Part shown: positions 29,879 to 36,728 of the stretch, one piece after another | Layout: every line of letters starts with the position of its first letter | Position numbering within the stretch: position 1 is the stretch's first letter | From: Alphaproteobacteria bacterium | Lineage (GTDB): Bacteria > Pseudomonadota > Alphaproteobacteria > CAAHEQ01 > UBA3637 | Length of the DNA: 64,000 bases | NCBI GenBank assembly: GCA_045631185.1 | Contig: JAZQUH010000039.1 | Span: forward strand, 139,740-203,739 | Direction of reading: 5' to 3' | Made by a program: the position numbers and the translations under genes | Notes under the pieces: generated by a model | What the model was told of the DNA's origin: nothing | Seen by the model: the letters and a program-made list of their open reading frames with translations, nothing else | Databases searched by the model: none

Positions 29879-29910
29879 ATCCCCGACCAATTCGGTCGGG
29901 GATGGCTTTT
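29879..29910 (+). terminator. hairpin H1 (tccccgacc family), terminator
   Basis: atccccgacc-aattc-ggtcggggat followed by ggcttttt. Confidence 0.75.
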
Positions 29911-32907: not shown

Positions 32908-33872
32908 CGTTGACAGAAGAAGAAATCGTATCTTTGTTAGTTGATTCAAAAAATCAACATCAATTATTCAAAAAGGCAGATCAAGTCAGACAGGAAAATG
33001 TTGGTAATTCTGTTTTATTAAGAGGATTAATAGAATTTTCAAATAGTTGTAAAAATAACTGTTTGTATTGTGGCTTGAGAAAAGATAATATTCAACTCAA
33101 ACGTTATAACCTTTCACAAGAGGATGTATTATGTTTGGTAAAAAATGCTGTTCAATTAGGCTTAAAAACAATAGTTTTTCAATCCGGGGAAAATTTTGTA
33201 TATTCATGTGATAAATTATGCCGAATAATTGAGCAAACAAAAAAATTTGGTGTTGCGGTTACATTAAGTATTGGCGAAAAAAGTTATCAGGAATATAAAG
33301 CGTTTCGAGATAGTGGTGCAGATCGGTATTTAATGCGTATAGAAACGACAGATCAAAAAGTATATCATGATTTAAACCCGGGTATGAGTTGGCAGCATCG
33401 TTATGAATGTTTACAAATGATTAAAGAACTTGGATATGAGTTGGGTTCAGGAATAATGGTTGGTTTACCCAGGCAAACATTAAAATCAATAGCACGTGAT
33501 TTGTTGTTTTTGAAAAAGTTGAAAATTGATATGGCAGGGATAGGACCATTTATTCCTCATCCTTGTACACCATTAAGTGATTGCAAGGCGGGAACATTGG
33601 ATTTAGCTTTAAGGACGATGGCAATTATGCGCATTTTATTACCACATATCAATATACCTGCAACAACGGCAATGGAAAATATAAATAAAAATGGCCAAAT
33701 AAAAGCATTGCAATCAGGGGCAAATGTTATCATGCTTAATGCAACTGATTCTTTACATCGTTCTTTATATGAAATTTATCCATCTGATAAATCCTACTAT
33801 GATACCTTATCAGATAATTATTTTGATTTAAAATGGAAAATTTATGCTATAGGGCGAAAAATAGATGGTTGA
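32904..33872 (+). CDS. hydE: [FeFe]-hydrogenase maturase HydE (radical SAM)
   Basis: CKNNCLYCGLR Cx3Cx2C near the N-terminus, BioB-like fold length (322 aa). ATGA overlap with hydF. Confidence 0.8.
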   Translation: MTLTEEEIVSLLVDSKNQHQLFKKADQVRQENVGNSVLLRGLIEFSNSCKNNCLYCGLRKDNIQLKRYNLSQEDVLCLVKNAVQLGLKTIVFQSGENFVYSCDKLCRIIEQTKKFGVAVTLSIGEKSYQEYKAFRDSGADRYLMRIETTDQKVYHDLNPGMSWQHRYECLQMIKELGYELGSGIMVGLPRQTLKSIARDLLFLKKLKIDMAGIGPFIPHPCTPLSDCKAGTLDLALRTMAIMRILLPHINIPATTAMENINKNGQIKALQSGANVIMLNATDSLHRSLYEIYPSDKSYYDTLSDNYFDLKWKIYAIGRKIDG

Positions 33873-33916
33873 AATAACAGATATAAAACAGTTGTTAGTT
33901 TTGTTTTGGATATATG

Positions 33917-33946
33917 AAAATCCCCGACCGTTTGGGCCGGGGATAG
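33917..33946 (-). terminator. hairpin H2 (tccccgacc family)
   Basis: Minus strand ccccggcc-caaac-ggtcgggg followed by auuuu. The single mismatch is a G.U pair only in the minus-strand RNA. Confidence 0.65.
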
Positions 33947-33952
33947 TTTATA

Positions 33953-33970
33953 TTAAAAATTACGTTCCAT
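33953..33970 (-). CDS. candidate 5-codon mini-ORF MERNF (copy 1)
   Basis: taAGGAGGaaaag-ATG GAA CGT AAT TTT TAA. It has its own promoter upstream and hairpin H2 downstream. Confidence 0.35.
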   Translation of the reverse strand: MERNF

Positions 33971-33992
33971 CTTTTCCTCCTTAGATGAATAA

Positions 33993-34019
33993 AGTATAAC
34001 ATTTTTTATTTTATGTCAA
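33993..34019 (-). promoter_or_regulatory. promoter of mini-ORF copy 1
   Basis: Minus strand TTGACA-15 nt (ending TGt)-TATACT, an extended -10. Confidence 0.45.
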
Positions 34020-34020
34020 T

Positions 34021-34050
34021 AAAAAAATCCCCGACCGTTTTAGCCGGGGA
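34021..34050 (-). terminator. hairpin H3 (tccccgacc family), terminator of the bor-like gene
   Basis: Minus strand ccccggc-taaaac-ggtcgggg followed by aU7. Confidence 0.75.
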
Positions 34051-34062
34051 TAGTTTTTCAGT

Positions 34063-34353
34063 TTAATCTTGTTTACAGTAAATTGAATAACCACGCGGCG
34101 AATAAATCCCATAGGTAATACCTGTAATTAAACCTTGGATAAATGAGTAGTGGGTTTCAACACCGATAACCTCTTTTTTTCCACAAACATCTTTTGGGTT
34201 TATTTCCTTTGATTGACCTAATCCACCCAGAATAAAATGAGTTGTTCCTTCATAGGTTGGAACTGTTGGCATTCGGTCTGTTTTTATGGGAAATTGTTGT
34301 GTGCAACAACCGGCCAATAAAAACAATGAGCATAATAAAGTATATTTTTTCAT
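34063..34353 (-). CDS. bor: Bor/Iss-family outer-membrane lipoprotein
   Basis: 96 aa. Lipobox LLAGC. THFILGGLGQSKEINPKDVCG...VETHYSFIQGLITGITYGIYSPRGYSIYC aligns by eye with lambda Bor (HHFFVSGIGQKKTVDAAKICGG...TETQQTFVNGLLGFITLGIYTPLEARVYC). Confidence 0.8.
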   Translation of the reverse strand: MKKYTLLCSLFLLAGCCTQQFPIKTDRMPTVPTYEGTTHFILGGLGQSKEINPKDVCGKKEVIGVETHYSFIQGLITGITYGIYSPRGYSIYCKQD

Positions 34354-34580
34354 GTTACTTCCTTTTTTTAAAAAATCGCCATGATGAGTGGCGGTTGGAA
34401 GTTAAACACTATCAATCAAATAGCGCCACATATTTGGCAAAGCCTTATTCTGTGGCCATCCAACCGCAAAAACGGTTGAATGTTTTACGTCAATTGACGA
34501 GATTGAGAGGTGTTTAATCCTCACAGTTGGAATCACCAAACTGCGATATTAGAATATATCTTTTTTATAAAAAATGCAAT

Positions 34581-34610
34581 AAAAAAATCCCCGACCGTTT
34601 TGGCCGGGGA
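34581..34610 (-). terminator. hairpin H4 (tccccgacc family), terminator of acd plus mini-ORF copy 2
   Basis: Minus strand ccccggcc-aaaac-ggtcgggg followed by aU7. Confidence 0.75.
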
Positions 34611-34620
34611 TAGTTTTTTT

Positions 34621-34638
34621 TTAGAAATTACGTTCCAT
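34621..34638 (-). CDS. candidate 5-codon mini-ORF MERNF (copy 2)
   Basis: aAGGGGGAaact-ATG GAA CGT AAT TTC TAA, 14 nt after the acd stop. It differs from copy 1 by a synonymous TTT/TTC change. Confidence 0.35.
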   Translation of the reverse strand: MERNF

Positions 34639-34652
34639 AGTTTCCCCCTTGG

Positions 34653-36728
34653 TTATTTCAACAACATTTTGAAGTCCACCACAACGGCACGGTCTTTTGT
34701 GACCAATACAGGGTTGCCGTCAATGGATGTGATTTCGGGAATTTCCAAAACCAACTTTTGAACTTTTGCCAATGTATCGGCCAACGGTCCGACGGCTTTT
34801 GGATCTTCGCCACGCACACCATTCAAGATGGTACCGACTTTTGTTTCCTTAATCATGGCATCAAAGTCATTGGCGGGCAAGATACGCATTGTTGTATCAC
34901 GCATGACTTCGGTATAAATACCGCCTGTACCGAACACCAACACACGGCCGAAGTTCTTATCGGAATTGACGCCGATAATTGTTTCGGTGGCTTTGGTAAT
35001 CATTTCTTGAATCAAGACGCTGGCACCTTTTAATTCAAACTTGGCGATTGTGGCTGTCAAAGCATCAAAGGCTTCGTTGAATTTTTCTTCGGAATCAATG
35101 TTCAAATAGATACCCTTCATTTCTGTTTTATGTAAGGCATCAGGGGCCGACAATTTCAACACGACAGGGAAGATATTTTTGGCAAAGGCCAAAGCTTCGG
35201 CTTTATCGGTAAAGTTACCGCATTTCGGATAATCAATACCATAATGATCCATAATCATGTTCATTGTGGATTGCGGTAAAGAGGCCAAACCTTCGGAAAC
35301 GGCAGAAGCAACAGCGGCTTTAATATCGGCCGGCACTTCGCTTGTTTCAACTTTCACATCGGGCAATCCTTTGAATGCCATTTGGGCTTTCATCAAGCCG
35401 AGCAAACGGATACAGTCTGTCGGATAATCATAGGCCAAAATCTTGGCGTTTTTCAATAATTGAACGGCTTCACGCACACGGGAACCACCTATGAAAGAAC
35501 AATAGATATTGACGTTTTTATATTGTTCGGCCATTTTGATAACAGCTTGGGCTGTTTCAACGGGTTCTGTGGACATTTGCGGTGTCAACAACACGATGAT
35601 GTTTTTGTATTCACCGGATTCACACAACACACGCAAAGCATTTTCATAACGGTCTGCCTTGGCATCACCCACCACGTCAATGGGGTTACCGACGGAAGCT
35701 TCAGCGGTTAAAACGGCACGCAAAGCTTCAATTGTTTTTTCGGACGGTCTGGCCAAATCCAACTTGGCTTCTTCGCACAAATCAGAAGACAACACACCCA
35801 CACCACCGGCGTTTGTTAAAATACCGACAGCACCGCCAAAGTCTGTGTGATTAACGTTTTGCAATAATTCCAAAGCACCAAATAATTCACGGGTTGTATA
35901 AACTTGGATAGCACCACTGCGTTGCAAAGCAATTTCCAACACACGATAGTTGGGGGCCAAAGAACCTGTATGGGACAAGCTGGCTGCTTGGGCTTTGCTG
36001 GATTTACCCGGTTCCATAATTACACACGGTTTTGTTTTGGAAACTTCTTTCAATACACGCAAAAATTCCTGACCTTTTTTCAATCCTTCCAAATAGAACA
36101 CAAAAGCCTTGGTGTTTTCGTCATGTTGAATGAAGTCCAACAAGCTGGCTTCGTTCAAATCTGCTTTGTTACCCACGGAAATAAAGTGAGAAAAGCCAAT
36201 GCCTTTTTCTTCGGCCCAATCCAAAATCGCACTGCAATAAGCACCGGATTGAGAAATAAAGGCCACATTACCCTTTAATGGGAAGCAAGGTGCAAAAGAA
36301 GCATTTAATTTATCAAAAGTGGAAATATGTCCCAAACAGTTCGGACCCAACACATTGATACCGGCATCCAAACATTTTTTGGCAATTGTCAATTCCAATT
36401 CTTTATTACCGACTTCACCAAAACCGGCGGTAATAATGCTGATGTTTTTGGCACCGTTGGCGATGGCATCATCCACGGCCGCTTCACAAAAACGGGCCGG
36501 CACCAACAATACAACCAAATCAACGGCTTCGGGAATATCACGCACGGAGGCAAAGCATTTTTTACCTTTTAATTCCTGACCGGCCAATTTGGGATTCACT
36601 CCGTATAAATTGCCTTCAAAACCGGCATCAATCAAGTTATTAAAAACGACCGCGCCCAATTTGGATTCATCGGCCGAAACACCAACAACCGCCACGGATT
36701 TCGGTGCAAAGAATGTATTTAAAGACAT
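34653..36728 (-). CDS. ADP-forming acetyl-CoA synthetase (acetate--CoA ligase, fused alpha-beta, NDP-forming acyl-CoA synthetase family)
   Basis: N-terminal CoA-binding FFAPKSVAVVGVS...KLG. Succinyl-CoA-synthetase-like ligase domain with the phospho-His region SLSHTGSLA. C-terminal ATP-grasp domain. 691 aa. Confidence 0.8.
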   Translation of the reverse strand: MSLNTFFAPKSVAVVGVSADESKLGAVVFNNLIDAGFEGNLYGVNPKLAGQELKGKKCFASVRDIPEAVDLVVLLVPARFCEAAVDDAIANGAKNISIITAGFGEVGNKELELTIAKKCLDAGINVLGPNCLGHISTFDKLNASFAPCFPLKGNVAFISQSGAYCSAILDWAEEKGIGFSHFISVGNKADLNEASLLDFIQHDENTKAFVFYLEGLKKGQEFLRVLKEVSKTKPCVIMEPGKSSKAQAASLSHTGSLAPNYRVLEIALQRSGAIQVYTTRELFGALELLQNVNHTDFGGAVGILTNAGGVGVLSSDLCEEAKLDLARPSEKTIEALRAVLTAEASVGNPIDVVGDAKADRYENALRVLCESGEYKNIIVLLTPQMSTEPVETAQAVIKMAEQYKNVNIYCSFIGGSRVREAVQLLKNAKILAYDYPTDCIRLLGLMKAQMAFKGLPDVKVETSEVPADIKAAVASAVSEGLASLPQSTMNMIMDHYGIDYPKCGNFTDKAEALAFAKNIFPVVLKLSAPDALHKTEMKGIYLNIDSEEKFNEAFDALTATIAKFELKGASVLIQEMITKATETIIGVNSDKNFGRVLVFGTGGIYTEVMRDTTMRILPANDFDAMIKETKVGTILNGVRGEDPKAVGPLADTLAKVQKLVLEIPEITSIDGNPVLVTKDRAVVVDFKMLLK

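Follow-up and report, generated by a model that had tools for sequence, protein, structure and literature searches.

The stretch of DNA considered here (the window) comprises 64,000 nucleotides (nt) of contig JAZQUH010000039.1 and belongs to a metagenome-assembled genome of an alphaproteobacterium (G000; 0.99 Mb, 76% complete). On its minus strand, two five-codon open reading frames (mini-ORFs), each preceded by a Shine-Dalgarno (SD) sequence and each encoding the peptide MERNF, lie on either side of the lipoprotein gene bor; one of them (copy 2) follows directly on acd, and the other (copy 1) is free-standing. Comparison with related genomes places this pair in a lineage-restricted family of five-codon genes encoding Met-Glu-x-x-Phe and indicates that the conserved unit is the SD sequence together with its ORF, not the terminator that follows. 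Judged from their sequence, these minigenes are probably translated.

Two MERNF modules in the window

Read along the minus strand, the locus consists of acd, copy 2, the terminator H4, a promoter, a leader of ~190 nt, bor, the terminator H3, a promoter-like site, copy 1, and the terminator H2 (Table 1). The duplication pointed out in a preliminary description of this DNA is real: with up to two mismatches allowed, the 18-mer of the mini-ORF has two matches in the window, against 0.06 expected, and the only difference between the two frames is a synonymous TTT/TTC change. A count over the whole 0.99-Mb genome, which that description had proposed, again found the 18-mer just twice, but a third mini-ORF of the same kind, encoding MEDRF, lies in this genome outside the window. 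As described, copy 2 adjoins acd, its ATG lying 14 nt beyond the acd stop codon (34655-34653) with CC between that stop and the SD sequence, and neither copy leads into a downstream gene; H2 opposes the 3' end of hydE (stop codon at 33872, plus strand), and the stem of H4 starts 9 nt past the stop codon of copy 2. The acd-linked SD sequence carries an A-to-G change (AAGGGGG). The 3' end of the 16S rRNA in this genome reads GATCACCTCCTTTC, and the altered base would retain its pairing with this tail as a G.U pair.

The TTGACA/TG-n-TATACT element ahead of copy 1 is a plausible promoter by its sequence. It is kept in the relative G003 and on contig L159, and it was missed by a consensus scan because its spacer is 15 nt. 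That the sequences upstream of the two modules are unrelated, as first stated, is nearly true; the exception is a stretch of 8 to 10 nt, AAAATGTT(GT), shared with the last codons of acd, perhaps by chance. A derivation of the copy 1 promoter from the acd 3' end was considered and dropped, since a match of only 8 to 10 nt is not secure.

Table 1. Features of the locus and members of the minigene family. Positions refer to the window unless a genome and contig are given.
Feature	Position	Strand	Description
Mini-ORF copy 1 (free-standing)	33953..33982	-	SD AAGGAGG at 33982-33976; ORF ATGGAACGTAATTTTTAA (ATG GAA CGT AAT TTT TAA) at 33970-33953, MERNF
Mini-ORF copy 2 (acd-linked)	34621..34650	-	SD AAGGGGG at 34650-34644; ORF ATGGAACGTAATTTCTAA (ATG GAA CGT AAT TTC TAA) at 34638-34621, MERNF
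Promoter-like site of copy 1	33993..34019	-	TTGACA at 34019-34014, 15-nt spacer, TG-n-TATACT (-10 at 33998-33993); predicted from sequence
Terminator H2 of copy 1	33913..33946	-	Stem 33944-33920, 8 nt past the ORF stop; same stem as H4, shorter U run (TTTTCAT)
Terminator H4 of acd and copy 2	34577..34613	-	10-bp GC-rich stem ATCCCCGGCC/GGTCGGGGAT, stem 34611-34587, T7 run
acd	34653..36728	-	ADP-forming acetyl-CoA synthetase, 691 aa (Pfam and homologues); 3' end bears copy 2
bor	34063..34353	-	Bor/Iss-family lipoprotein, 96 aa (PF06291, E 6e-21); separates the two mini-ORF units
bor leader RNA	34354..34560	-	Structured, ~190 nt; not in the mini-ORF family
Terminator H3 after bor	34021..34053	-	Same hairpin, stem 34051-34027, without a mini-ORF ahead
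Hairpin H1	29880..29902		TCCCCGACCAATTCGGTCGGGGA; related palindromic terminator upstream of the hyd operon
MEDRF unit, ybaB/ebfC 5' leader	G000:C26:66395-66425		ORF 66408-66425, outside the window; AAGGAGGAATACA ATG GAA GAT CGT TTT TAA, between promoter and ybaB
MEDRF orthologue, ybaB leader	G019:C19:21393-21423		TTC
MEDRF orthologue, ybaB leader	G003:C9:14866-14896		TTC
MEYSF unit, tRNA-Trp leader	G016:C29:17501-17530 (L128)		AAGGAGGAAACC ATG GAA TAT AGT TTC TAA, between promoter and first tRNA-Trp base; degenerate pattern search
MEYSF unit, tRNA-Trp leader	G009:C15:21110-21139 (L129)		TAC for TAT; SD AAGGAGA

Variation at the acd 3' end among relatives

Twenty-one species of the genus were compared, 11 of which have acd. 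In G003, acd is followed by MERNF, a terminator, a TTGACA promoter-like site, a second MERNF, and a terminator, the two units forming a direct tandem with no bor between them; the same tandem arrangement occurs on contig L159 (acd 96% identical), in the order acd, MERGF, terminator, promoter, MERNF, terminator. A single copy, encoding MERGF, follows acd in G019, and the order on contig L158 (acd 99% identical) is acd, MERNF, terminator, bor, terminator. The free-standing MERNF unit is present in G000, G003, and L159 and absent from G019 and the close strain L158. No contigs encoding the exact Bor protein are on record.

Further afield, acd in G001 is followed by MERAF and then by a quite different terminator (GCCCCGAGTAATCGGGGC), whereas G013 has the G001-type terminator and an SD remnant but has lost precisely the ORF. 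The six other species with acd have no mini-ORF, and their acd stop codon lies roughly 20 to 40 nt from the hairpin (hand count). No mini-ORF was found at acd homologues of 84 to 93% identity; a metagenome scan anchored on the acd tail returned 31 loci, mostly unrelated, and the acd homologues among them were likewise without one. A scan of genome contigs with the SD sequence plus MERxF gave no carriers beyond the three relatives already known. At fourfold-degenerate sites of acd, identity is 0.73 to 0.81 among G000, G003, and G019 and 0.47 to 0.50 between G001 and these three, which makes G001 as distant from them as any member of the genus. The acd tree does not separate its deep branches, and the G001 unit may have come either by descent (an old unit with losses elsewhere) or by transfer.

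Two origins within acd itself were rejected. Readthrough or frameshifting from acd does not account for the mini-ORF, whose frame relative to acd differs in G000, G019, and G001 (gaps of 13 to 15 nt), and the peptide has no homology to the acd N terminus (MSLNTF).

A family of five-codon genes at four kinds of site

The general form of the family is an SD sequence AAGGAGG (or AAGGGGG/AAGGAGA), 5 to 7 nt, and then ATG GAA NNN NNN TTY TAA. It occurs at four site types, namely, the acd 3' end (MERNF, MERGF, or MERAF), the free-standing position (MERNF), the 5' leader of ybaB (MEDRF), and the 5' leader of tRNA-Trp (MEYSF), and it is found in 6 of the 21 species, with one to three units in each. 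The MEDRF unit turned up in a survey of strong SD sequences preceding very short ORFs in G000; it sits on an insertion of ~70 nt that is missing in the other 16 species with a match to the region, including G001. MEYSF is confined to G016 and G009, being absent from the other species compared, including the close relative G010, and from G000, and its stop codon lies 7 to 8 nt ahead of the tRNA acceptor stem.

Most telling was a control pattern that left codons 2 to 5 unconstrained. AAGGAGG-N4-8-ATG-N12-TAA has eight matches across the 21 species genomes, and each of them is ME..F. The four-codon and six-codon versions have two and four matches, respectively; these are singletons unrelated to one another and do not exceed the reversed-pattern controls in frequency. 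Versions ending in TAG or TGA gave singletons only. No ME..F pattern was matched in 59 genomes of 15 sister genera, and the unconstrained pattern had one unrelated match in ten genomes of two sister genera. Viral contigs yielded 13 matches, which is about chance level, several of them within coding sequence, and these were given no weight.

Three observations from these searches are recorded in their own right. A lone AAGGAGG-driven five-codon frame in a sister genus (G070:C25:4771-4801) encodes MNPFF and likewise ends in Phe. Two IMG/VR contigs (L123:1379-1409 and L120:3301-3330) have AGGAGG with a MERVF or MERSF frame, within chance expectation. In G000, near-identical SD sequences (AAAAGGAG) precede a 12-codon ORF, MRIMMNQMN(S/N)LP, at C2:302 (-) and C15:42915 (-), which may be part of a larger repeat.

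The SD-ORF unit is not tied to the hairpin, since a different terminator follows it in G001 and none follows it in the ybaB and tRNA-Trp leaders. The modules were originally described as homologous from SD sequence to terminator; both are present as such, but they do not form a single unit, given that the hairpin occurs without the ORF and the SD-ORF unit occurs with another terminator or none. The pattern that had been named as damaging to a coding interpretation, a hairpin conserved where the frame is not, was found in part; the converse also holds and favors the ORF.

Conservation and translation signals

The 14 available sequences bear out the statement that SD sequence, start, frame, and stop are conserved, and the relatives show purifying selection. 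ORF positions 1 to 6 (ATG GAA), 12 to 14, and 16 to 18 (T TT. TAA) are invariant. At position 15, C and T are equally frequent (seven sequences each), with at least one change at each of the loci A, A', and B (at least three independent changes). Codon 3 shows one synonymous change (TAT/TAC), and the acd-linked units have AAT, GGT, or GCT as their fourth codon, so that variation within a locus is synonymous or limited to codon 4. Between loci, four of the six positions in codons 3 and 4 vary (CGTAAT, GATCGT, TATAGT), while the SD sequence and the outer codons are identical. This is the pattern expected of a translated frame in which the length and residues 2 and 5 are important and residues 3 and 4 are of little consequence.

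The unit also stands out from its surroundings. Between G001 and G019, the SD sequence and ORF are identical at 28 of 31 positions. Fourfold-degenerate sites in the neighboring acd are 47% identical, and P is about 5e-7 relative to this background; with the last 300 nt of acd as the reference, where third-position identity is about 0.7, a hand calculation puts P at about 0.01. In the ybaB leader, 28 to 30 of 31 core positions are identical, versus 21 to 26 of 34 immediately downstream. AAGGAGG with an ATG 4 to 8 nt downstream is highly specific for real starts in G000: the heptamer occurs 91 times, an ATG follows at this distance in 62 cases, and in 58 of those it begins an ORF of 58 codons or more. 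Codon shares within synonymous sets in this genome are 90% for GAA, 49% for CGT, 71% for AAT, and 83% for TTT, and TAA makes up 67% of stops; because of this bias, the invariance of GAA and TAA says little.

A different account of the same conservation would be an untranslated RNA motif, in which AAGGAGG...AUGGAA...UUUYUAA serves as a protein- or rRNA-binding site or forms a small hairpin (UGGAA-N6-UUYUA), the free-standing unit is a small RNA, and the frame is incidental. The complementarity of GAA and UUY, the free 6-nt middle, and a C/U change that falls opposite G all fit a stem of 5 bp with a 6-nt loop; the third base of codon 4 is invariant; and the free-standing unit, with its A/U-rich stretch, hairpin, and U tail, looks like the 3' module generally known from small RNAs. 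We nevertheless consider this account improbable. The mini-hairpin is marginal (-2.5 to +1.2 kcal/mol), the minimum-energy folds of 11 sequences disagree, and RNAalifold run on six modules supports the terminator alone, in which G003 shows a compensatory replacement of G-C by A-U. All 14 sequences, moreover, combine an exact 7-nt complement of the anti-SD, at the spacing of a start site, with an ATG and an in-frame TAA, as a translated frame predicts. A search of Rfam with positions 33800 to 34800 at E<=1 reached no gathering score (best, 24.8 bits, with 60 needed), and a decoy site for CsrA, suggested by two GGA motifs, was rejected since CsrA was not found in the five carrier genomes.

A repeated hairpin at synteny breakpoints

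The hairpin had been reported twice at this locus. The window in fact holds three copies of the 30-nt element (33917-33946, 34024-34053, and 34584-34613) and a fourth, related one, H1; two of these four, H1 and H3, have no mini-ORF. Copies lie on either side of the hyd operon, of the free-standing mini-ORF, and of bor, and the hairpin is an independent local repeat located at synteny breakpoints. In G003, the second mini-ORF unit is directly followed by a matching hairpin and by the convergent gene that adjoins H1 in the window; therefore, the 4-kb hyd operon is not at that site. A further hairpin copy marks the next synteny break in G003, and the DNA past the last hairpin of the array differs among G000, G003, G019, L158, and L159. 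Relative to G000, the two mini-ORF copies in G003 have swapped their 3' halves (TTC TAA AAAAAA versus TTT TAA TATAAA), which indicates recombination or gene conversion between copies. The repeated terminators thus seem to act as recombination points.

These arrangements suggest a history in three steps. The acd-linked unit would predate the clade of G000, G003, and G019; a tandem duplication would then have produced the free-standing unit, in the arrangement still seen in G003 and L159; and bor, hyd, and the free-standing unit would have been gained or lost through recombination among hairpin copies, with bor coming to split the pair in G000.

Such mobility raises the alternative that the unit is a neutral by-product, in which the leftover start of a vanished gene became joined to a repeated terminator and was spread by recombination, much like the "small mobile terminator cassette" of the preliminary description. 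The position of the hairpin at synteny breakpoints, the coming and going of bor, the hyd operon, and the free-standing copy among close relatives, and the swapped 3' halves would all be expected of it. A cassette of this kind leaves the fixation of Glu2 and Phe5 at unrelated loci unexplained, however, and we regard it as very improbable: the SD sequence and ORF are conserved over a diverged neutral background, they occur without that hairpin at three other site types, codons 3 and 4 diverge between loci while SD, ATG, GAA, TTY, and TAA do not, and the edges of the insertions show neither inverted repeats nor target-site duplications.

The leader RNA of bor

The DNA between H4 and bor contains a separate structured element. 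The bor leader is conserved in G011, G009, G018, and contig L162, where it follows acd and precedes genes for small lipoproteins. RNAalifold on five sequences found compensatory changes in 21 of 42 predicted pairs. GAAUAA and UCC boxes are invariant (in most of the five as GAAUAAGG and UUAACUUCC), and a terminator-like hairpin precedes the SD sequence. The leader has no Rfam match at E<=1 and is a candidate for an undescribed riboswitch or leader.

Possible functions of the minigenes

Our comparison shows a family whose units occupy the sense strand of transcribed noncoding stretches of unrelated kinds; ribosomes would translate its mini-ORFs. At the acd site, where the acd stop codon lies 1 to 3 nt before the SD sequence, the ribosome terminating acd would sit on that sequence and probably reinitiate. 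Because the four site types have only transcription in common, the selected effect would come from the translation event or from the pentapeptide itself and not from regulation of a neighbor, a reading to which the sequence pattern lends about even chances.

How such an effect might come about can only be guessed at. If this reading holds, our first choice would be that the nascent peptide or the peptidyl-tRNA(Phe) acts on its own ribosome in the manner of the E-peptide and other minigenes, by analogy with those systems; close behind would come release of (f)Met-Glu-x-x-Phe as a small ligand or signal, and the least favored guess is a load on tRNA or on peptidyl-tRNA hydrolase. A more specific version, and an unlikely one, is that these are natural pentapeptide minigenes in which the nascent Met-Glu-x-x-Phe or its peptidyl-tRNA(Phe) evicts or senses a gut-common ligand of the ribosomal tunnel or termination site. 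To be translated often, the units would ride on RNAs made in large amounts (a tRNA leader, the mRNA of a central-metabolism gene, or a transcript from their own promoter). In a variant, the unprocessed five-residue peptide may itself be the signal or ligand, in a Gram-negative organism with a 1-Mb genome.

Several observations weigh against a selected effect of translation or of the peptide. The family is narrow (6 of 21 species, at roughly three to four independent loci), and its free-standing copy is dispensable among close strains, being absent from L158 and G019. It is not obvious what a tRNA leader would gain from a mini-ORF, and a partner protein, exporter, or receptor was not found. The 5-bp UGGAA/UUYUA mini-hairpin, through the complementarity of its GAA and UUY, predicts the same pattern of fixed ends and free middle as a translated frame; codon 4 ends in T in each of the 14 sequences, which hints at constraint on the RNA level; and so might the consistent use of GAA in place of GAG and of TAA as the stop codon, which codon bias largely explains and with which an RNA-level constraint also agrees.

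The main rival, which we think unlikely, is a role in cis. As a ribosome-loading element, the unit would hold a parked or cycling ribosome that protects the transcript end, gates the terminator at the acd and free-standing sites, and, in the way of leader minigenes, sets downstream expression in the ybaB leader. Spacing speaks for it: the distance from stop codon to terminator stem is 7 to 9 nt in all nine acd-linked and free-standing copies, that to the tRNA acceptor stem is 7 to 8 nt, and the species without a mini-ORF have their acd stop roughly 20 to 40 nt from the hairpin. In Escherichia coli, moving a stop codon from 28 to 5 bp before tR2 lowered termination from about 90% to <10% (PMC4824070); by that standard, a ribosome at the spacing seen here would be near enough to disturb the helix. 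The unit also lies within about 5 to 12 nt of the predicted transcript start at three of the four site types. A cis role has no place, however, for fixed Glu2, fixed Phe5, and exactly five codons at unrelated loci, a difficulty shared by the 3'-end stabilizer that had been proposed for the two copies. There is no codirectional gene past the terminator in G003, G019, or G001 or past copy 1, a tRNA needs no 5' stabilizer, the ybaB-leader copies have no stable helix past the stop codon, and a ribosome initiating de novo would probably arrive too late to block a terminator only ~30 nt downstream.

Annotation misses genes of five codons, and a role is known for very few of them (bytA, the CreT-type toxins, bar, and the laboratory-selected resistance pentapeptides). 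It is unusual that one frame, Met-Glu-x-x-Phe behind a ribosome site of full strength, should recur at loci alike only in being transcribed, one of them a tRNA leader. The family is defined by comparative evidence alone and offers a compact, easily synthesized test object of 30 nt in three natural variants. If it does encode a ribosome-directed peptide or a five-residue signal in this abundant, uncultured group of Alphaproteobacteria, it would add to the short list of functional minigenes; if not, the locus is still a clean case of repeated terminators reshuffling small cassettes between close strains.

Comparison with known minigenes

The preliminary description knew of no pentapeptide gene of this form. 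Five-codon genes have in fact been described, of the bytA, E-peptide, CreT, and bar types, yet the definition of none of them fits the family. Reportedly, Tenson and Mankin showed that pentapeptide minigenes give macrolide or ketolide resistance in cis and that an E-peptide is encoded in 23S rRNA. The resistance pentapeptides are hydrophobic (Met, Leu/Ile, Leu/Ile, x, Val type, with Leu/Ile at position 3 and a C-terminal Val) and were selected in the laboratory. This class and the minigenes described here share an SD-driven ORF of about five codons, and that class depends on length and residue positions and acts on the translating ribosome, wherever in the genome the ORF lies. ME-x-x-F is, in contrast, acidic and polar, and the hydrophobic consensus is matched by none of MERNF, MERGF, MERAF, MEDRF, and MEYSF.

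The lambda bar minigene and the synthetic minigenes of two to eight codons combine a strong SD sequence, AUG, a few codons, UAA, and an A/U-rich stretch, as the present units do, and their effect of translation is independent of position (PMC2490762). The bar minigene itself has two codons (AUG AUA), is phage borne, and is toxic when peptidyl-tRNA hydrolase is limiting (PMC2490762), whereas the ME..F family has five codons in 14 of 14 cases, fixed Glu2 and Phe5, and a chromosomal location.

The architecture of the free-standing copy is that of the CreT toxins of CreTA modules, with a promoter, a strong SD sequence, AUG, a mini-ORF of four to six codons, and a stable stem-loop (PMC8501985). Copies 1 and 2 share this architecture, and the ybaB-leader members, which have no helix, do not. 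CreT toxins require two consecutive rare codons and an adjacent CRISPR-Cas-guided repressor, creA (PMC8501985). An assignment to CreT was rejected on both counts: the mini-ORF codons are common, as their shares in the genome attest; the neighbors are acd, bor, and hyd; and Cas1 (PF01867) was not found in G000 (76% complete), G003, G019, G016, or G001.

Closest in size is bytA, the 18-bp precursor gene of biarylitides, which are ribosomally synthesized and posttranslationally modified peptides; it encodes M-x-Y-x-H and always lies beside the gene for its P450 (PMC12002111, PMC13417212). Here, too, a five-codon gene has two fixed and two free residue positions. The length agrees, but the motif does not (no family member has His5, and only MEYSF has Tyr3), no P450 (PF00067) was found in the five carrier genomes, and the sites have no neighboring enzyme in common.

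Ribosome-repressed terminators and leader-peptide attenuators (PMC4824070) have a translated stop codon close to the stem of an intrinsic terminator, as the mini-ORFs would at their distance of 7 to 9 nt. An attenuator was rejected, as there is no conserved alternative antiterminator fold, no regulated downstream gene, and no regulatory codon run; the gene that comes after the terminator either runs convergently or has a promoter to itself, and the family members in 5' leaders have no terminator. On the evidence of these comparisons, the ME..F family resembles the functional minigenes and yet fails a defining feature of each of them, whether CreT, bar, the resistance pentapeptides, or bytA.

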